Shown: positions 11,487 through 53,632 of the stretch, in pieces
Layout of the letters: every line of letters starts with the position of its first letter
How positions within the stretch are numbered: the stretch's first letter is position 1
From: Escherichia coli
GTDB taxonomy: Bacteria; Pseudomonadota; Gammaproteobacteria; Enterobacterales; Enterobacteriaceae
Length of the DNA: 64,000 nt
Assembly (NCBI RefSeq): GCF_003334405.1
Contig: NZ_QOWM01000012.1
Strand: one strand, 5' to 3'
Program-made: the position numbers and the translations under genes
Notes under the pieces: model-generated
Seen by the model: the letters and a program-made list of their open reading frames with translations, nothing else
Databases searched by the model: none
What the model was told of the DNA's origin: nothing

Positions 11487-11585
11487 GCCTGATGCGCTGC
11501 GCTTATCAGGCCTACAAGGTTTCTGCAATATATTGAATTTGCAATATTTTGTAGGCCGGATAAGGCGTTCACGCCGCATCCGGCA
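11487..11585. repeat. REP pair (BIME) between lafA and lafB
   Basis: gcctgatgcgctgcgcttatcaggcctac and gtaggccggataaggcgttcacgccgcatccggca. Confidence 0.7.
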
Positions 11586-17289: not shown

Positions 17290-17505
<216 letters not shown>

Positions 17506-23890: not shown

Positions 23891-24226
23891 TTATTTCCCT
23901 TCAATGGCCTCTCTGATGCCGCTGATTTGCAGATTCAGAAAGGTCAGACTGCTTTGATAATCCATACTATTTTGTGAAAACCGCGCCTGTTCGCTGTTCA
24001 GCTCCACGGTGTTGCCATCTTCCGACGGCTGCATCGGCACGCGGTACTGGACATCCACCGCCGCGTTATTTGCCCGTTGCATCTCCCTGGCAAAATCAAT
24101 ATCTTTAGCCTTGAAATTTGGCGTATCGACGTTCGCCAGATTCGCAGTCAGTAGCTCGGTCCTCTCAAGACGTAACTTCACTGCCTGCGGATGTACTCCC
24201 AATGCCTGTTGAAAACTGATCCCCAT
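23891..24226 (-). CDS. lfgB: rod protein LfgB (FlgB-like)
   Basis: Start set at MGISFQQALGV (RBS AGGAG upstream); ...LTANLANVDTPNFKAKDIDFAREM aligns to FlgB. Confidence 0.85.
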   Translation of the reverse strand: MGISFQQALGVHPQAVKLRLERTELLTANLANVDTPNFKAKDIDFAREMQRANNAAVDVQYRVPMQPSEDGNTVELNSEQARFSQNSMDYQSSLTFLNLQISGIREAIEGK

Positions 24227-24262
24227 TTCCTGCGTCACTCCTGCTTCAATCCGCATACGCTA

Positions 24263-24278
24263 AGCAATCGCCGTGCCA
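24263..24278 (-). promoter_or_regulatory. sigma-54 (-24/-12) promoter of lfgB operon
   Basis: Coding strand TGGCACGGCGATTGCT: GG-N10-GC with TGGCAC and TTGC elements, ~35 nt upstream of lfgB ATG. Confidence 0.55.
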
Positions 24279-24307
24279 TTTTTTAAGTGACTGATGAGAA
24301 AGGGTTT

Positions 24308-25045
24308 ATGAGTTTTCAATTTTGCAGGCGGAAGTTTTATTTCCTCCTGGCGCTGGCCTTACCGGGCTACGCCGCCGTCCACCCCGTGCAGCACAGCGCG
24401 CGGGAACAAGTCAACGCCCAGGTGCTGAATGCCGCGAGCCAAAAAATTGAATCGCTGGCGCAACAGCGGCAGTGGCATGACTATCACTACACCTTTAAGG
24501 TCTACATTCCCTCGCAGATTGCGACCGCCGCGCCCTGTGCGACTACACCCGGCGTTACGCTCACTTCGCCTGCGGAAATCGCCCTCAACCGGATGAACTT
24601 CACCGTCAGTTGCCCGCAAAGCTGGCAGATGAACGTGGCGGTGCGCCCGGATGTGCTGGTGCCGGTGGTGATGACAAAGTCACTGGTTGCCCGCGATACG
24701 CCGCTCACGGCAAATGATGTGGAGTTGAAGCCCTACAACGTCAGCGCCCAGCGCAGGGAGGTGTTGATGGAACTCGATGACGCGATTGGTTTCAGCAGTA
24801 AACACGCGCTGCAACCAGGCAGGCCAATCACCAAAGAAGAGCTGGTGTCTCCGGTGCTGGTCGGGCGCGATCAGCCGGTGATGATTGTTTACCAGAGCGC
24901 GGGGATCACCGCCTCGATGCCCGGCGTGGCGCTGAAAAATGGTCGCAAAGGCGAGATGGTGAAAGTGCGTAACGCCAGCAGCCAGCGGGTCATCAGCGCG
25001 ATGGTGGCGGAAAGCGGCGTGGTGACAACGGTAAGCGCGGAGTAA
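24308..25045 (+). CDS. lfgA: P-ring assembly chaperone LfgA (FlgA-like)
   Basis: Divergent from lfgB; signal peptide, SAF/FlgA-type C-terminal domain; start set at MSFQFCRR. Confidence 0.75.
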   Translation: MSFQFCRRKFYFLLALALPGYAAVHPVQHSAREQVNAQVLNAASQKIESLAQQRQWHDYHYTFKVYIPSQIATAAPCATTPGVTLTSPAEIALNRMNFTVSCPQSWQMNVAVRPDVLVPVVMTKSLVARDTPLTANDVELKPYNVSAQRREVLMELDDAIGFSSKHALQPGRPITKEELVSPVLVGRDQPVMIVYQSAGITASMPGVALKNGRKGEMVKVRNASSQRVISAMVAESGVVTTVSAE

Positions 25046-25069
25046 TTTGCGCTGGCGATTAAAGTTTTG

Positions 25070-25096
25070 CCGCCTGTTAACCGCTTTACCGGAGTA
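25070..25096 (+). promoter_or_regulatory. possible sigma-28 promoter of lfgMN
   Basis: TAAAGTTT (exact -35 consensus) -N11- AACCGCTT, ~30 nt upstream of lfgM ATG. Confidence 0.35.
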
Positions 25097-25125
25097 ACCC
25101 ACCCAAATACCGAGACGAGGTTGCG

Positions 25126-25404
25126 ATGAAAATCACCCCGACTATGCCAGGCAATCGCCCAACAACCACAACGGCAGGCTCCAGCCAGCCGCGCAAAACC
25201 ACGGCGACCACCACCACGACGCTGAGCGCCGACGACATTACTCAGGCGGGATTGCAGTCTGCCCAGCAAACGCTGAACGACCAGCAAGAGAGCGATATCG
25301 ACAGCAACAAAGTGGCGCAAGTGCAGGCGATGCTGGCGTCCGGCAGCCCGCAAGTGGACACTGAACAGTTAGCCAGCGACATGCTGAGTTTTTTCCAGAA
25401 CTAA
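25126..25404 (+). CDS. lfgM: anti-sigma-28 factor LfgM (FlgM-like)
   Basis: 92 aa, unstructured N-terminus, small acidic protein preceding flgN-like gene. Confidence 0.65.
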   Translation: MKITPTMPGNRPTTTTAGSSQPRKTTATTTTTLSADDITQAGLQSAQQTLNDQQESDIDSNKVAQVQAMLASGSPQVDTEQLASDMLSFFQN

Positions 25405-25416
25405 GAGGCCGATGAA

Positions 25417-25845
25417 GTGAGTATCCGGTTACAACAGGTGAAGGCGTTGTTGCAGGGAATTCGTGACGACGACGCGCTGTATGATTCCCTGCGCGAACGT
25501 CTCCAGCGCCAGCGGATCTGCATGATTCGCCGCGCCAGCGAGGAGTTGCTGGCGGTAAACGATGAGATTACGCATCACTATGAGCAGTTACACAGCCATA
25601 GCCATCAGCGGCATAGCCTGCTGAAAATGCTCGGTGTTAGCGTAAATCGTGACGGTCTGGCGCAGGTGTTTGCCTGGCTTCCGGCGGTACAAAAAGCGGC
25701 AGCACAACAATTGTGGCAACACCTTGAGCAAAAAGCGGAACGCTGCAAAGCCTACAACGATAAAAACGGCGAGTTGTTGATTCGCCAGTATGAATTTATT
25801 CAGTCGTTTTTAGGCAGCGAAGCAGATTTTCTGTATCAGGAATAA
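25417..25845 (+). CDS. lfgN: export chaperone LfgN (FlgN-like)
   Basis: 142-aa helical protein downstream of flgM-like gene. Confidence 0.65.
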   Translation: MSIRLQQVKALLQGIRDDDALYDSLRERLQRQRICMIRRASEELLAVNDEITHHYEQLHSHSHQRHSLLKMLGVSVNRDGLAQVFAWLPAVQKAAAQQLWQHLEQKAERCKAYNDKNGELLIRQYEFIQSFLGSEADFLYQE

Positions 25846-25922
25846 CGACAATACCTTCCCCCATCGCGGAAACGGATTTTCCGCCTGATTGCCAATCCCT
25901 TGTTTTTGACTACAAAAAATCC

Positions 25923-25938
25923 CGGCACGCTTATTGCA
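25923..25938 (+). promoter_or_regulatory. sigma-54 (-24/-12) promoter upstream of unknown gene
   Basis: CGGCACGCTTATTGCA: GG-N10-GC, one mismatch to TGGCACG-N4-TTGCA; ~35 nt upstream of ATG 25973. Confidence 0.5.
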
Positions 25939-25972
25939 CATCCTGCACAGCATTAAAGACTGGAAGCCACCT

Positions 25973-26902
25973 ATGAGTTTTATTGAATGTTACGAACCGG
26001 AATACGTGCGCAATTTTATGACGCAATACCCCGGTTCGCCTTTATACGTCCGCAAGGTGTGGAAAAACGAGATTCGCCTGAGCCTGATGCTGACAGAGCC
26101 AGAAAGCTGCGAAGCGATGCTCAACGATGTCAGGGCCTTTGATTTACAGCTCACCTACCGTCCTGTGGAAGAAAATGCCGCAGAGCTTTCCGCGCGCGAT
26201 GCGATAGTAAACCAGGTGATTTTGAGTACCCTCACGCTCCGTGATTTAACACCAGAACTGTCATTGTATGCCGTCGGTATCCTGCTCTCCCGCGCCAGTA
26301 AAATGCCGGGCAGAGACGGAGATATTCTTGCCCGTTTGACGACGCTGCCGCAGGCGCTGGCCGATCATGCGAAAAAAGGCATCCTACAGGCACAGTTCGC
26401 CCAGCTGCCGCCCGTGCCACAGCTGGTGCGTCACCTGGCCACGTTACTCGGGAGTTTTACGTTTGACTGGTCGATTTTGCCGGAAAGCCCGCGCAAAACT
26501 TCGCTGCCGTTGCAGATGCCTTTGCTGACGCTGCATGACGCTAACAGCGAAGCCCTGTTACAACAGCAGCTTCAGACGCAGTGGCAAACCACCTGGCAAC
26601 AGCATTTTGCCACCGCGCCCTGGATGATGCGTAACTGGCTGATTTACCGCGTTTACCACGATGTGATTGGGCAGACTGACGGGGCGGATTATTTCCCGCT
26701 GGTGTGCGATTTTTATCTCCTCCGCACGTTAATCAGTTTATGGACGCTGGATGGTTCTTCGCTGCGGCAGGAGGATATTTTCGCCCTCTTTGCCATGTTT
26801 GAACGCTGGCGAGCCAGTGAAAATGCGCTGTTGGTTCGCCAGCAAATTCAGTCGTTATGTGCCGCCGACCCGCTGCTTTCAGCGTTTTCGCTGCTAACGT
26901 GA
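25973..26902 (+). CDS. hypothetical protein (309 aa) of the Flag-2 embedded modification module
   Basis: ORF with RBS GGAAG, start MSFIECYEPEY; no motif I can recognise; preceded by sigma-54 promoter. Confidence 0.6.
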   Translation: MSFIECYEPEYVRNFMTQYPGSPLYVRKVWKNEIRLSLMLTEPESCEAMLNDVRAFDLQLTYRPVEENAAELSARDAIVNQVILSTLTLRDLTPELSLYAVGILLSRASKMPGRDGDILARLTTLPQALADHAKKGILQAQFAQLPPVPQLVRHLATLLGSFTFDWSILPESPRKTSLPLQMPLLTLHDANSEALLQQQLQTQWQTTWQQHFATAPWMMRNWLIYRVYHDVIGQTDGADYFPLVCDFYLLRTLISLWTLDGSSLRQEDIFALFAMFERWRASENALLVRQQIQSLCAADPLLSAFSLLT

Positions 26903-26904
26903 GT

Positions 26905-27047
26905 CGCTCTGTGCGCGCTTTGCCCCTCACCCTAACCCTCTCCCCAAAGGGGCGAGGGGACCGATCGAGCACAGTGTTAAAATCGGCGCTGATTTTCTCC
27001 CTCTCCCTGTGGGAGAGGGTTGGGGTGAGGGCATCAGCGCGCACATT
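26905..27047. repeat. ~140-bp GC-rich composite palindromic element (MITE-like)
   Basis: Arm cctcaccctaaccctctcccc (26925-26945) vs gggagagggttggggtgagg (27012-27031) are reverse complements with one mismatch; outer tgtgcgcgc / gcgcgcaca also inverted. Confidence 0.5.
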
Positions 27048-27080
27048 CATCACATTCACCCATTAACTCACCCAAACACC

Positions 27081-29525
27081 ATGCCAACACCAACCATCAT
27101 CAAAACACTCAACACCCACCGCGAAAAACCGTTTGTCAGCGTCGTCACGCCAACCTGGAACCGCGGCGCATTCCTGCCGTACCTGCTCTATATGTACCGC
27201 TATCAGGATTACCCGGCAGACCGCCGCGAACTCATCATCCTCGACGATTCCCCACAAAGCCATCAACACATCATCGACCGCCTGACCAATGGCACGCCGG
27301 AAGCCTTTAACATCCGCTACATCCATCACCCGGAAAAACTGCCGCTGGGCAAAAAACGCAACATGCTCAACGAACTGGCGCGCGGCGAATACATCCTCTG
27401 CATGGACGATGACGACTACTACCCGGCAGATAAAATCTCTTACACCATCGCCATGATGCAAAAACACCGGGCGCTCATCTCCGGCTCCGATCAGATCCCC
27501 ATCTGGTACAGCCACATCAACCGCATCTTTCAAAGCCGCAGCTTTGGCCCGCATAACATCCTCAACGGCACCTTTTGCTATCACCGTAACTACCTGAAAA
27601 AGCACCGTTACGACGATGATTGCAATTTAGGCGAAGAGAAACGTTTCACCGACAATTTCAGCGTAAACCCGCTGCAACTGCCCGGCGAGCGCACGATTCT
27701 GTGTATCTCGCATAGTCAAAACACCTTTGATAAAGATTTTATTCTCGGGGCCAGCACGCCAGTAAACGCGGCGCTTACGGATATCGTCCGCGATCCGCTG
27801 CTGCGCAATGCTTATCTGAGTCTGCATAACGCCACTCATCACCAGGCGATCAACCATCAGGCGATCGATCAGATCGTTCTGCTGAATCTGGATAAACGCC
27901 CGGATCGCTTACAACAGATCCGTGAAGAACTGGCATTGCTGCATATTCCACCTGAGAAGATCACCCGCCTTGCCGCCAGTGAAGATGAAAACGGTCAACG
28001 GGGCCGCCGTCAGTCGCACTTACAGGCGCTGCGCCTGGCGCAACAGCACGGCTGGCAAAACTACCTGCTGCTGGAAGATGACGCGGTTATTCTCAAGCAG
28101 GAGAAACATATTCAGGTACTGAACACGCTGCTGGCGAGCCTGGCGAAAATTCCCTGGCAGGTGATGATCCTCGGTGGCGAAATTTCGCAGGGAACGATGC
28201 TAAAAAGTTTGCCGGGGCTGGTGCACGCGCGGGACTGCCGCAAAGTGTGCGCGTATCTGGTGAACAGCCGCTACTACCCGCAACTGGCGCAGCAGATGAG
28301 CAACGATGAGCACTCGCTGGAAGCCTGCTGGCAGCCGCTGCTACGCGCCGACAAATGGCTGGCCTGTTACCCGAGCCTTTGCTACCAGCGACCGGGTTTT
28401 AGTGATATCGAGAAAAAAACGACTGATAATATTGCTCACTATTTCAATAAGTTACCCGTAGCCACCAAGCCATCTACATTACCCATCGCCGATACCATCG
28501 GCTTTTTTATGGAAACCTCATTCCACTACACGCTGTACCGCCCAATCATCACCGCTCTACAGGCGCAGGGGCAGAGCTGCACACTAGTGATCAATGACCG
28601 CGTGTTTAAACCGTTTCTTGATGAGATGCTGGAAACACTGAAAAACATCGACGATCCGCAGCTTAAAGGTATGCGTCTGTCAGAAATGCAGACACATGGT
28701 CAGCGGGTGAAATGCCTGGTCAGCCCCTACCACACGCCTGCGCTCAATGGCCTGGCGGCGGTGAACATCCGCGCTATGTACGGCTTAGCCAAAGAGACGT
28801 GGAACCACGCCGACTGGAATCGTTTTTACCAAAGCATTTTGTGTTATAGCCACTACAGTCAGCAGGCGCTGGCGCATTTCGGCAGCGCAAAAGTGGTCGG
28901 CAACCCGCGCTTCGACGCCTGGCATAACGGCACGTTCGATCGCGCGTTGCCGGAAAACATCCAATCAGATTACCGTAAACCTACGGTGCTCTATGCCCCA
29001 ACGTTTAGCGCATTAAGCTCCCTGCCCCACTGGGCTGAAAAATTGGGCCGCTTGAGCGGTGATGTGAACCTGATTTGCAAACTGCACCATGGCACCTGCT
29101 CACGCCCGGAAGAAGCAGCATCGCTGGCCCTGGTGCGCAGGCATTTAAAACAGCGCACCGACTCCGCCCGCCACACGCTGGCGCTGCTGGCAAAAGCCGA
29201 TTACGTGCTGACCGATAACAGCGGGTTTATTTTCGATGCTATCCACGTTGATAAGCGGGTGATCCTGCTCGACTTTCCGGGCATGAATGATTTGCTCGAC
29301 GGTGAGAAAAGTTATTCCACGGCAGAGAGCGCCGACCAGCGAATCCGCGAAATATTGCCGGTTGCTCATGATGTTGCAGAACTGCGTTATTTGTTGTCAG
29401 AGGCGTTTGACTGGGGGTCGGTGCAGGCGCGGCTTACGGAGATTCGCCATCACTATTGCGATGCGTTTATGGATGGCAAGGCGGGAGAACGGGCGGCGAT
29501 TGTGATTGTGGAGGCGCTGGGGTAA
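27081..29525 (+). CDS. three-domain glycosyltransferase / glycerophosphotransferase (GT2-like + GT25-like + TagB/TagF-like)
   Basis: N-term GT-A signature VSVVTPTWNR...ILDDSP...CMDDDDYY (DxD); central domain IVLLNLDKRPDRLQQIREEL... resembles family-25 transferases; C-terminal ...VLYAPTFS...KLHHG...VLTDNSGFIFDAIHVDKRVILLD resembles CDP-glycerol glycerophosphotransferases. Confidence 0.8.
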   Translation: MPTPTIIKTLNTHREKPFVSVVTPTWNRGAFLPYLLYMYRYQDYPADRRELIILDDSPQSHQHIIDRLTNGTPEAFNIRYIHHPEKLPLGKKRNMLNELARGEYILCMDDDDYYPADKISYTIAMMQKHRALISGSDQIPIWYSHINRIFQSRSFGPHNILNGTFCYHRNYLKKHRYDDDCNLGEEKRFTDNFSVNPLQLPGERTILCISHSQNTFDKDFILGASTPVNAALTDIVRDPLLRNAYLSLHNATHHQAINHQAIDQIVLLNLDKRPDRLQQIREELALLHIPPEKITRLAASEDENGQRGRRQSHLQALRLAQQHGWQNYLLLEDDAVILKQEKHIQVLNTLLASLAKIPWQVMILGGEISQGTMLKSLPGLVHARDCRKVCAYLVNSRYYPQLAQQMSNDEHSLEACWQPLLRADKWLACYPSLCYQRPGFSDIEKKTTDNIAHYFNKLPVATKPSTLPIADTIGFFMETSFHYTLYRPIITALQAQGQSCTLVINDRVFKPFLDEMLETLKNIDDPQLKGMRLSEMQTHGQRVKCLVSPYHTPALNGLAAVNIRAMYGLAKETWNHADWNRFYQSILCYSHYSQQALAHFGSAKVVGNPRFDAWHNGTFDRALPENIQSDYRKPTVLYAPTFSALSSLPHWAEKLGRLSGDVNLICKLHHGTCSRPEEAASLALVRRHLKQRTDSARHTLALLAKADYVLTDNSGFIFDAIHVDKRVILLDFPGMNDLLDGEKSYSTAESADQRIREILPVAHDVAELRYLLSEAFDWGSVQARLTEIRHHYCDAFMDGKAGERAAIVIVEALG

Positions 29526-29532
29526 ACCGCGC

Positions 29533-29620
<88 letters not shown>

Positions 29621-29642
29621 AATACATCTCTGTTTTAGTACT

Positions 29643-30038
29643 TTATAAAAGCCCTCTAATCACCTCAATAATCCCCGTCGTCGACACCGACGGCGTGCGG
29701 GGGAAATAGACCACCTCACAAATATACGCAAAGCTGTCAAACTTCCCTGCCCAGTCATCCCCCATCACTAAAATATCCGCACTGTACCCGCGCAAATACT
29801 CCGCTTTTTGCTCCAGCGACTCTTCCAGAAATACGCCATCCACGCACGCCAGCCCGGCGATGATCGCCATGCGGTCATCCTGATGGTAAACCGGTGCCCT
29901 GCCCTTTTTGGCGATGTTCAGGGCGTCGGACGATACGCCGACCAGCAGCCGCTCGCCCAATGCGCGGGCGCGTTGTAAAAGGCGCAGATGACCGACATGA
30001 AACACATCGAAGGTGCCGAAGGTGATGACCGTTTTCAT
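29643..30038 (-). CDS. TagD-like cytidylyltransferase (glycerol-3-phosphate cytidylyltransferase family)
   Basis: 131 aa from MKTVITFGTFDVFHVGHLRLL (HxGH) with RTPSVSTTGI motif; ATG lies 2 nt after lfiJ stop (TAG-CC-ATG), RBS GGAG. Confidence 0.8.
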   Translation of the reverse strand: MKTVITFGTFDVFHVGHLRLLQRARALGERLLVGVSSDALNIAKKGRAPVYHQDDRMAIIAGLACVDGVFLEESLEQKAEYLRGYSADILVMGDDWAGKFDSFAYICEVVYFPRTPSVSTTGIIEVIRGLL

Positions 30039-36626: not shown

Positions 36627-36710
<84 letters not shown>

Positions 36711-43134: not shown

Positions 43135-43338
43135 GCACAACTGCCGGATGCGGCGTGAACGCCTTATCCGTCCTACCGTTCAGGCACAAGTTTGTAGGCA
43201 TGATAAGACGCGCCAGCGTCGCATCAGGCATCTGCGCATAACTGCCGGATGCGGCATAAACGCCTTATCCGGCCTACCGATCCGGCACAAGTTTGTAGGC
43301 ATGATAAGACGCGCTAGCGTCGCATCAGGCATCTGCGC
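43135..43338. repeat. BIME: two tandem ~100-bp REP-pair units
   Basis: Unit ctgccggatgcggcrtraacgccttatccgkcctacc...gtaggcatgataagacgcgcyagcgtcgcatcaggcatctgcgca repeated twice. Confidence 0.75.
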
Positions 43339-43342
43339 ACAA

Positions 43343-43840
43343 TTATGAAATGATACGCTCCCCGGCACTAAAATCCGTTACGTCCCCCGCCCAATCGATG
43401 GGATATAACCCTCGCGCGACATCGCGATGGAACGTTGAGAATGGCCAATCACTCACTTGCTTTACCCAACCATGCTTTACTGGATTTATATAAATATAAT
43501 CAACATGATGCCTATAATCTTTGGTATTGCGGATGGCGTGCTCCCAAAAACGTGGTTGCCAGATATTTTTCAATCCACAAGCATGGGTAAATTGCTTTTT
43601 AATTTCCCGCCAGCGCGAGGAAAAATCATCATCGCCTTCAGGTAATGTCCAGATACAGTGCATATGCTCTGGCAAAACGACCCAGGCGTTGATTTCAAAA
43701 GGCCTGTCTCGCTTAACTTTAATAATGGCGTGACGGAGCATCTGGTACTGGGTGGTCAAAAGTTGGCTTCGACGATTTCGTAAATTCACCGTGAAAAACC
43801 ATGTTCCCCCCTTGATGTAATAACGACGATATTCAGACAT
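43343..43840 (-). CDS. rayT: REP-associated tyrosine transposase RayT (TnpA-REP)
   Basis: 165 aa starting MSEYRRYYIKGGTWFFTV; HUH-family motif (LPEHMHCIW); flanked on both sides by BIMEs. Confidence 0.85.
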   Translation of the reverse strand: MSEYRRYYIKGGTWFFTVNLRNRRSQLLTTQYQMLRHAIIKVKRDRPFEINAWVVLPEHMHCIWTLPEGDDDFSSRWREIKKQFTHACGLKNIWQPRFWEHAIRNTKDYRHHVDYIYINPVKHGWVKQVSDWPFSTFHRDVARGLYPIDWAGDVTDFSAGERIIS

Positions 43841-43919: not shown

Positions 43920-44025
43920 AAATATTCGCGGGCTCGTAGGCATGATAAGACGCGCCAGCGTCGCATCAGGCACCTGCGTACAACTGCCGGATGCGGCGTA
44001 AACGCCTTATCCGTCCTACAAAATC
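43920..44025. repeat. REP pair (BIME)
   Basis: gtaggcatgataagacgcgccagcgtcgcatcaggcacc ... ctgccggatgcggcgtaaacgccttatccgtcctac. Confidence 0.7.
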
Positions 44026-47214: not shown

Positions 47215-47345
47215 TCGGATGCGGCGTGAACGCATTATTCGGCCTACGGTTCGCGTACAGATTTGTAGGCATGATAAGACGCGTCAGCGTCGCATCAGGC
47301 ATCAGCGCACAAATGCCGGATGCGGCGTAAACGTCTTATCCGGCC
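47215..47345. repeat. BIME (REP cluster)
   Basis: tcggatgcggcgtgaacgcattattcggcctac ... gtaggcatgataagacgcgtcagcgtcgcatcaggcatc ... gccggatgcggcgtaaacgtcttatccggcctac. Confidence 0.7.
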
Positions 47346-52098: not shown

Positions 52099-53235
52099 CT
52101 ACGAAAGCCCGCTCCCCGCAAGGACTGACGCCAGGTAGTTTCTGTCCATGGCTGCTTTTCGCATCTTACGTCTTAACCCTGCCTTGAATACCTTCTCATT
52201 CGTCAAAATATTAATAGCAATGTGCCGTATCCCTGAAAATAATTCTGCTGCGTTTCCTCTTCTTATTTTGTAGTCGTCTTCATTCATTACCACGTCCAGA
52301 CGCCTGTGCAGCTTATTCTCCACGTGCCAGTGGTTTCGGATTGCTGTGGCGAACTTCTCTGCGGTTAAATCAGCAGAACTGATATAATATCTGACCGTCA
52401 TTTCTGGCTCTTTCTTTTGTTCTGCTATTATTGACCGAAAGGAGACTGCCACGCATAATTTCTTCAGCCCTTTCCATTCAAACGTGAAATCAATAAGTTC
52501 ATCAGGGACATCGCAAACAATATGAAGACGGATTTCTTCTCTGCCGTGACTCTTTTCACTCATTGCGTAACTGTCATGCGCTGGATTATTTAATTCTTTC
52601 AGCGGAAATTTTTCCTCAAAGGCTTTATTTAGCCGCCCCTGGTTTCCTTTTACCGCGAATAAATAATCACCTCCCTGTTTTTGTATCTTCTCTGCAATAT
52701 CTTTCTGGCAACCCATCGCATCAGTTGTGATGATTTTTCCTTTAATATCCAGCATGTTAAGAAGTTCTGGGATAGCTGTAATCTCATTAGATTTCTCATC
52801 CGTCCTGATCTGTCCGATGACCAGACTGTGCATTGTTGAGAACGCACTAATGACATGAATCGCTCCCTTGCGGCGACTCTTGTCATAAGAATGCCGGAGT
52901 GTTTTTCCATCAATTGCGATGACGTCTTTATCATCTGAAGTATGGCAATCTCGCATCCAGTTAATAAAGCACTCGTGAAATTTTGAAGGACTGATACAGG
53001 ATACAACTCTGGCGATGGTATCGTGAACAGGAATACCATTTTCAAAATCACCATATTGTTTTAAAAAATCGAGATGTGTTTCCCCAAAATCCTCTATATC
53101 TTCCCAGCCTTCTGCACCAGAAATAACGGCACAAATAGTCAACAGTAGAATATCCGATAATTTATGTTCCACTTTCCAGGCTTGTCTGTAATCGGGGATA
53201 ATAGAAATATGTTCCATCAATTTTTTAAGTTCCAT
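52099..53235 (-). mobile_element. ISAs1-family (H-repeat) transposase, full-length ORF
   Basis: 378-aa [21 protein letters not shown]...; H-repeat-associated protein family typical next to Rhs elements; corresponds positionally to K-12 pseudogene yafF. Confidence 0.8.
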
Positions 53236-53333: not shown

Positions 53334-53632
53334 GCGAATTATTTAGTACAAAAAATCAGCGTTACGTGATCTTTCCCTGCCCCTGCGCTCACTACCATGG
53401 CTCTTTACCACAGCAGCCGGGGTTGTTTGGGACCGACTTCCGACAGCAGATCCCGGTGGGCCTGCCACCATCTCTTCACAAGCTTATGCTTATTACATGC
53501 AAAACGTCCCGTTTTGCATCTTTGTGCCTACGGCACACCGGTGATCTTTCCCTGATGAGGGATATATTAACTATTGAACATTAGCGCGAATTATTTAGTG
53601 CAAAAAATCAGCATCACGTGATGCTTTTCCTG
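53334..53632. repeat. pair of ~45-bp direct repeats flanking a ~200-bp GC-rich segment
   Basis: gcgaattatttagtRcaaaaaatcagcRtYacgtgatSttttcctgc at 53334-53379 and 53586-53632; core gtgatctttccctg also at 53541-53554. Confidence 0.4.

Follow-up and report, generated by a model that had tools for sequence, protein, structure and literature searches.

What is the GC-rich palindrome of some 140 bp that separates two genes in the flag-2 (lateral flagella) locus of Escherichia coli, and do those genes have any need of it? The locus, between dinB and rayT, is spanned by the window—the whole stretch of 64,000 nucleotides that we analyzed—and several complete chromosomes of E. coli, that of strain ATCC 8739 among them, agree with its positions 24000-30000 at 100% identity. 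A sequence-only reading of the same DNA had presented the palindrome as a possibly unique composite and had put forward three suggestions for its nature: a MITE-like insertion, an element for mRNA processing or stability, or a protein-binding site. As judged from its sequence, the palindrome is an inverted pair of copies of the repeat BoxC, the minus-strand copy being of type A and the plus-strand copy of type B. It belongs, accordingly, to a repeat family already described, and is a real but ordinary member of that family.

The palindrome and its neighboring genes

The palindrome is present where it had been placed, and it had been correctly delimited. A repeat search of the window returned an imperfect inverted repeat at 26910-27045, with arms of 35 nt on either side (26910-26944 and 27011-27045) that are 86% complementary and have 66 nt between them, a likeness far beyond chance. 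The stretch CCTCACCCTAACCCTCTCCCC, at 26925-26945 on the plus strand, has its inverted counterpart at 27010-27030, and no inverted match to it appeared in any shuffle of the window; the inverted repetition of this arm was thus correctly seen, and the single mismatch attributed to it holds over 20 nt, without the last base, whereas over the full 21 nt there are two. There is no mismatch between the outer arms, TGTGCGCGC (26910-26918) and GCGCGCACA (27037-27045), whose inversion had been noticed, and a direct repeat flanking the arms is absent. Folding, which the sequence-only reading had proposed as a check on its long imperfect hairpin or cruciform, bore out that description: the overall predicted fold of 26910-27045 is one long stem, with energies of -93.4 kcal/mol for the RNA of the plus strand (z -8.42), -88.8 kcal/mol for that of the minus strand (z -8.66), and -48.1 kcal/mol for the DNA (z -8.45), and none of 200 shuffles was as stable in the RNA folding.

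Within the locus, the pair is located in variable region 1 (VR1) of flag-2—the flagellin-modification cargo between lfiJ and lfgN (De Maayer et al., PMC6993521)—with a LafV-like gene before it and a glycosyltransferase gene after it (Table 1). The upstream protein is called LafV-like because of a weak similarity to the flagellin lysine-N-methylase FliB (E 6e-11 against the NCBIfam model Lys_methyl_FliB, below the curated cut-off), and its gene ends in the TGA at 26900-26902, 7 nt before the palindrome. For the glycosyltransferase gene, the longest ORF begins at GTG 27009, inside the repeat, and that extension translates the repeat; the RefSeq start for the identical sequence is ATG 27081, 35 nt past the palindrome, and in the BoxC-free allele (see below) the homologous ATG is preceded, at a distance of 6 nt, by an in-frame TAA. 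The true start is ATG 27081 and the extension from GTG 27009 is spurious, so that the earlier objection to an ORF start falsely extended into the palindrome was justified. Two more mechanical ORFs run across the palindrome, 26857-27066 (+) and 26733-27059 (-), of 69 and 108 aa, respectively; their products (LTLTLSPKGRGD..., ...SLWERVGVRA) are translated repeat, and those ORFs should not be annotated as genes.

Table 1. Coordinates in the window of the palindrome and its parts, the two flanking genes, and elements matched elsewhere (strand ".", both or none)
Feature	Position	Strand	Remarks
Upstream hypothetical protein gene, LafV-like	25973..26902	+	RefSeq annotation of identical sequence
Whole composite palindrome	26910..27045	.	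Two inverted BoxC units; C-rich 5' ends inward, G-rich 3' ends and tails outward
BoxC unit type A	26910..26972	-	Flank and tail like K-12 type A copies at hrpB-mrcB, ygfF-gcvP, and alx-sstT
Unit A 3' tail, G + CAAAGCGCGCACA	26910-26923	-	
Triplex/G-quadruplex motif of unit A, CCCTCGCCCCTTTGGGGAGAGGGTTAGGGTGAGGG	26924..26958	-	Exact TM_ECO consensus match
Unit A 5' flank, GTGCTCGATCGGTC	26959-26972	-	
Central spacer, AGTGTTAAAATC	26973..26984	.	With neighboring bases, weak 7-bp hairpin 26972-26991, then ATTTTCT
BoxC unit type B	26985..27045	+	5' flank GGCGCTGA-TTTTCT, motif 26999-27031, 3' tail CATCAGCGCGCACA at 27032-27045
Triplex/G-quadruplex motif of unit B, CCCTCTCCCTGTGGGAGAGGGTTGGGGTGAGGG	26999..27031	+	Exact TM_ECO consensus match
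Downstream multidomain glycosyltransferase gene	27081..29525	+	GT2 domain N-terminal, weak TagB-like region
Rfam ES036 (CssrF) sRNA match	11508-11550	-	44.6 bits, gathering score 37.6; spacer between flag-2 fliD-like gene and lafA
Six Rfam naRNA4 (REP325-type REP) matches	17347-17424 (-), 36631-36707 (+/-), 43197-43274 (-), 43939-44016 (-), 47268-47345 (-)		None at palindrome
Rfam group II intron D1-D4-2 match	53349-53469	-	81.8 bits; beside 378-aa ORF 52099-53235 (-)

Identity and anatomy of the two units

BoxC, 56 bp long and present in 32 copies, has been catalogued together with PU-BIME and ERIC among the known repeats of E. coli (PMC2267715); the counts published for K-12 are 22-32 BoxC copies and 23 TM_ECO motifs (PMC2267715, PMC4666352). 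The same family has been published as the PIT (potential intrastrand triplex) elements of Hoyne and Maher in 2000—here as cited in PMC4666352—as the TM_ECO motifs of Holder et al. in 2015 (PMC4666352), and as HPG1/HPG2, the "G-quadruplex-hairpin-duplex switch" of Kaplan et al. in 2016 (PMC5100583); the genome paper on Enterobacter sp. 638, for its part, reported 100 copies of the family hairpin CCCTCTCCCXX(X)GGGAGAGGG. Isolated single strands of the triplex motif from other copies fold in vitro into triplexes and G4 structures (PMC4666352, PMC5100583).

When the consensus CCCTCNCCC-N3-6-GGGNGAGGG-N3-GGGNGAGGG—taken, with its trailing [G/T/C/-], from PMC4666352—was run over the window, exactly two matches were obtained, at 26924-26958 (-) and 26999-27031 (+), and 100 shuffles gave none. 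By blastn with the 146-bp element as query, BoxC-related sequence was found in all of the complete E. coli genomes (5426/5426), at a median of 20 places per genome, 93,148 of the 93,221 places being chromosomal. The genome-wide search for further copies advised by the sequence-only reading thus returned them in every genome, and the objection of "no additional copies" falls away along with the possible uniqueness, the composite being an inverted pair of a known BoxC/PIT/TM_ECO repeat. The palindrome shares the following features with BoxC: the repeat is multicopy and intergenic, both halves match the consensus exactly and stand as A and B in inverted orientation, the type A motif is identical to K-12 copies, and the likeness of the units continues past the 33-36-nt motif into common flanks and tails.

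No Rfam family was found at the palindrome, either in a gathering scan of the whole window or in an E-value scan of 26800-27150, the latter region being matched by only sub-threshold plant and animal miRNA-precursor models, on account of the long-hairpin shape. The earlier statement that the palindrome is not a REP sequence is right in a narrow sense, since the REP325/naRNA4 model has no match here; yet the palindrome belongs to another of the classical E. coli repeat families. BoxC is like the REP/BIME elements and the REPINs in consisting of short GC-rich intergenic palindromic units, often arranged as inverted doublets that form a larger hairpin, and the window itself carries a rayT with flanking REPs; the sequence of BoxC, however, is unrelated to theirs. 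Whereas REPINs are REP doublets mobilized by RAYT transposases, we know of no transposase dedicated to BoxC.

In each unit, a 9-bp hairpin (CCCTCNCCC / GGGNGAGGG) is joined by a third G-tract (GGGNGAGGG) and by a short tail rich in GC, and two such units of ~60 bp each placed head to head therefore form a composite hairpin of 140 bp automatically. The likeness to the K-12 copies, compared at their five paired sites, extends into flanks and tails, and the outer arms TGTGCGCGC/GCGCGCACA are consequently the 3' tails of the two units. Unit A, read on the minus strand, is GTGCTCGATCGGTC-motif-GCAAAGCGCGCACA; its loop 2 is TTA, which defines type A, a G.A mismatch in its hairpin is characteristic of the class published as "A mm", and its motif is identical to TM_ECO numbers 7, 11, and 15 of K-12 (Table 1 of PMC4666352). 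Unit B is, from TTTTCT on, nearly identical to the type B unit at hrpB-mrcB of K-12, TTTTCT-TM-CATCAGCGCGCACGTTCA, the unit here reading TTTTCT-motif-CATCAGCGCGCACATTCA; when folded singly, it can close on itself through pairing of GCGCTGAT in the 5' flank with ATCAGCGC in the tail. The motif of unit B equals the K-12 type B copies except in loop 2, which is TTG instead of CCG or TCG. That loop is a point variant, since position 27021, a T in the window, is a C in the three other BoxC-bearing flag-2 alleles examined, which thus have the loop TCG of the published type B. The sequence GGGAGAGGGTTGGGGTGAGGG in unit B is a canonical G4 motif, and two of the three such motifs in the window fall within the palindrome.

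Inverted A+B pairs are typical of the family, there being five such sites in K-12, always A with B (PMC4666352, PMC5100583). Besides the loop of its B copy, the flag-2 pair differs from most of these sites in orientation: it is minus/plus, with the C-rich ends inward, whereas four of the five K-12 pairs are plus/minus with abutting tails, and only the one at lldD-trmL is oriented as in flag-2. The motif-to-motif distance in the flag-2 pair is 40 bp; the cores of the two E. coli minus/plus pairs examined, of 40 bp and 59 bp, seem unrelated on inspection.

Variation at the site, and the family beyond E. coli

Some 1278 genomes have the flag-2 segment. The 178-bp spacer with BoxC stands at the site in 749 of them, and a 46-bp spacer without BoxC in about 500 (~40%), the latter figure having been estimated from an evenly spaced listing of genomes. 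The site is polymorphic, and the flanking genes therefore do without the BoxC pair. The BoxC-free haplotype, exemplified by strain Ecol_656, is ~7% diverged, with a different spacer and diverged gene ends, and since divergence is far greater in those adjacent gene ends than elsewhere, the difference between the two flag-2 haplotypes is a replacement of the whole junction. In Ecol_656, the 46-bp spacer (L002:706-753) has a small GGCCGG/CCGGCC hairpin, GGCCGGTTTTCCCGGCC. Neither a clean empty site nor a target-site duplication was found at the flag-2 site in the BoxC-free haplotype, whose divergence and different spacer make insertion boundaries unreadable there.

BoxC-bearing alleles with 2-7% difference keep the pair, and between flag-2 haplotypes the element is 93-94% identical compared to 88-96% in the flanks, a similar rate of divergence. 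Three substitutions lie within the two triplex motifs, all of them at degenerate (N) or loop positions (26929, 26935, and 27021), which confinement is suggestive of constraint, the numbers being small. A putative compensatory change of the outer arms in strain RM8385 was discarded, as 26912 T>C and 27045 A>G are not partners of each other.

At the other minus/plus pair, that of lldD-trmL, different strains have a 12-bp deletion in unit B, a replaced interior, a near-total deletion, or no pair at all, and among the alleles compared there was no precise excision or target duplication. Such ragged partial or total deletions fit the "instability" published for the sites of this family, local sequence variability being raised around the TM_ECO sites (Holder et al., PMC4666352). 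In the lldD-trmL spacer of E. coli strain H1 (L134:~205-245), another palindrome, GCTGTCTCTTGATCAGATCTCCTGATCAAGAGACAG, stands where the BoxC pair would have its interior. That sequence resembles a pair of inverted IS50 inside ends and could be the scar of a transposon.

A scan of species-representative genomes with the consensus, which shows breadth and gives no prevalence, listed matches from at least 14 assemblies; among those listed were Polaromonas, Xanthomonas, Neisseria, Pseudomonas, Alphaproteobacteria, Hyphomicrobiales, Desulfobacterales, and Verrucomicrobiales. Among the listed loci, adjacent motif copies were minus/plus in 18 instances versus plus/minus in 6. In Pseudomonas sp. dw_612, an A-type and a B-type end, oriented either way in the genome, enclose conserved cores that measure 90 or ~120-125 bp, and the Verrucomicrobiales MAG RYN_621 has similar composites with conserved cores, so that in these two genomes the minus/plus A...B arrangement around its core makes up MITE-like elements of ~160-200 bp. 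E. coli and Pseudomonas sp. dw_612 have both ends in common, the A end (...ACTCGGTCAGTC-CCCTCGCCCC..TTA..), down to the G.A mismatch in the type A hairpin, and the B end (...TTTYC-CCCTCTCCC..CTG/CCG..); the conservation reaches ~12 nt into the subterminal flank on the 5' side of the motif, as seen when positions 26910-27045 of the window and the K-12 loci L006-L010 were compared with Pseudomonas. The conservation of the two end types across genera suggests some enzyme that recognizes folded ends, and it points to some sequence-specific constraint, for which reason the word "neutral" may be too weak. The papers on the BoxC family that are cited here note the A+B pairing, but we found no description in them of a MITE-like composite architecture. 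In a Polaromonas MAG, at more than five loci, the triplex motif is inside a different repeat of ~85 nt, so that different repeat families seem to make use of the motif as a module; the 5' flank (..GACAGTgaattgg..) and the 3' tail (..ACTGTCatg) of that Polaromonas repeat could form a closing stem.

Of the three suggestions of the sequence-only reading, the MITE-like insertion came closest, and a part of it stands: the palindrome consists of two copies of a dispersed repeat, with terminal inverted repeats (the 35-nt arms) and a short non-coding core (the 66-nt interior), and the composites of MITE-like build in Pseudomonas sp. dw_612 lend the idea genuine, if indirect, support. The likeness to the bacterial MITEs ERIC/IRU and YPAL lies in the size of ~140 bp, the long terminal inverted repeats, and the single long stem-loop, to which may be added that BoxC is a dispersed family catalogued beside ERIC and PU-BIME (PMC2267715) and that the A and B ends of Pseudomonas sp. 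dw_612 flank conserved cores. The insertion itself is putative, no target-site duplication or clean pair of filled and empty sites having been found at either flag-2 or lldD-trmL. The E. coli minus/plus cores, moreover, seem unrelated, most K-12 pairs are oppositely oriented, and no parental IS or transposase with the same ends was found for BoxC in 120 sampled loci. In this small sample, from other bacteria, no transposase lay between adjacent motif copies 150-4000 bp apart; one long minus/plus interior that was examined encodes, by inspection, a nitrate/nitrite (NarK-like) transporter. The BoxC element is matched in 520 plasmid records, and the two inspected—NZ_CP093490.1 and NZ_CP126871.1, filed as Klebsiella and Enterobacter plasmids—carry amiA and cysP, and xerD, fldB, and ygfZ, so that at least some of the plasmid matches are chromosomal segments; only 3 phage records match, all partially. 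Since no target-site duplication, clean empty site, or partner transposase was found, we can only infer the mobility of BoxC.

Within those bounds, we propose tentatively, and with more doubt than conviction, that the BoxC A and B units might be the two non-identical ends of an ancient and very widespread MITE- or REPIN-like element, the folded single-stranded DNA of which would be recognized by a transposase or recombinase; the flag-2 palindrome would then be a short-core member. To our knowledge, no enzyme mobilizing BoxC has come to light in ~30 years of work and four independent rediscoveries, and BoxC is among the few classical E. coli repeat families without an assigned function or mobilizing enzyme; the two end types conserved across genera could give a handle on how the family spread.

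Possible roles of the palindrome at flag-2

We found no sigma-70-like site in 25800-27300 and no sigma-54-like site in or after the element, and for sigma-28 only 10-of-16 matches, which we took as chance. With no promoter-like site between them, a co-transcription of the LafV-like and glycosyltransferase genes is plausible. If these two genes and lfgAMN were in fact co-transcribed, the stem might act in the intercistronic RNA as a barrier to 3' exonucleases or as a processing site, in the manner of REP/BIME and of the Yersinia ERIC (precedents summarized in PMC2267715), and so uncouple the LafV-like from the glycosyltransferase gene. The very high stability predicted for the sense strand (-93 kcal/mol) and the placement of the palindrome, which starts 7 nt past one stop codon and ends 35 nt before the next start, would suit that role. 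We nonetheless consider it unlikely, for ~40% of the flag-2-positive E. coli have no BoxC pair at the site, and, in the account given in PMC4666352, neither a functional trend nor an influence on gene expression was found for the members of the family. The fold, furthermore, is equally stable on the antisense strand, as is to be expected of a DNA palindrome and not of a strand-specific RNA.

That the palindrome could be an intrinsic terminator or attenuator separating the two genes seems highly improbable, even though it contains GC-rich hairpins—the weak one at 26972-26991, followed by ATTTTCT, among them—and the Enterobacter sp. 638 genome paper presumed that palindromes of this kind act in termination. 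The large stem is followed by AUUCAUCACAUU / ATTCATCAC, with no U-tract such as a rho-independent terminator would have; the terminator-like consensus matches, that weak hairpin included, occur at the frequency of the shuffles (3 versus 1.9 expected); and no promoter-like site lies downstream from which transcription of the glycosyltransferase gene could restart. In their tests of PIT elements, as cited in PMC4666352, Maher's group found a block of DNA polymerase in vitro, but activity neither as promoter nor as terminator, and no effect in vivo.

A third proposal, that a triplex, G-quadruplex, or cruciform at this place is recognized by some host factor and so regulates local supercoiling, replication, or expression, we regard as very unlikely. 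In its favor are the in vitro triplex and G4 formation by isolated single strands of the motif, the concentration in the palindrome of two-thirds of the canonical G4 motifs of the window, and the strong conservation of the motif, even in its loop types, across distant bacteria. The triplex was, however, undetected by DMS footprinting in vivo and by CD and NMR of double-stranded DNA, and no association with a gene class was found, the TM_ECO members lying at all distances from genes and in all orientations with no functional trend (Holder et al., PMC4666352). The BoxC pair is, in addition, dispensable at the flag-2 locus. No protein that binds the motif is known to us, nor any function of BoxC. 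The role in mRNA processing or stability and that of a protein-binding site, both suggested in the sequence-only reading, receive no support.

Taking as observed the identity of the units, their copy number, their boundaries, and their position in the VR1 spacer of one flag-2 haplotype, we give a probability of roughly 80% to the reading of the palindrome as two inverted copies of the dispersed, non-coding, ~56-65-bp repeat BoxC that would be selfish or neutral and would have no function dedicated to the two flagellin-modification genes. Such a pair, MITE- or REPIN-like in kind, would have arrived in the VR1 spacer and then drifted with that spacer, and the long hairpin would be a geometric by-product of two units lying head to head. 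Further by-products could be a stem of very high stability in the RNA between the two genes, should these be co-transcribed, and, in the DNA, single strands prone to hairpins, triplexes, or G4 structures, which would render such sites liable to ragged deletions. An effect of the palindrome on the expression of the lafV-like or the glycosyltransferase gene is possible; most likely, the BoxC pair is a dispensable passenger in one flag-2 VR1 haplotype. For the locus itself, a striking palindrome has been explained, the start of the glycosyltransferase gene fixed at its ATG, and two spurious ORFs flagged.

Two observations concern other parts of the window. Two of the naRNA4 matches bracket the rayT gene (REP-associated tyrosine transposase; ~43335-43832), which adjoins the end of flag-2. 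At roughly the position of the group II intron match, an ISAs1 family transposase pseudogene is annotated in ATCC 8739, and the window differs from ATCC 8739 in that IS-rich stretch.
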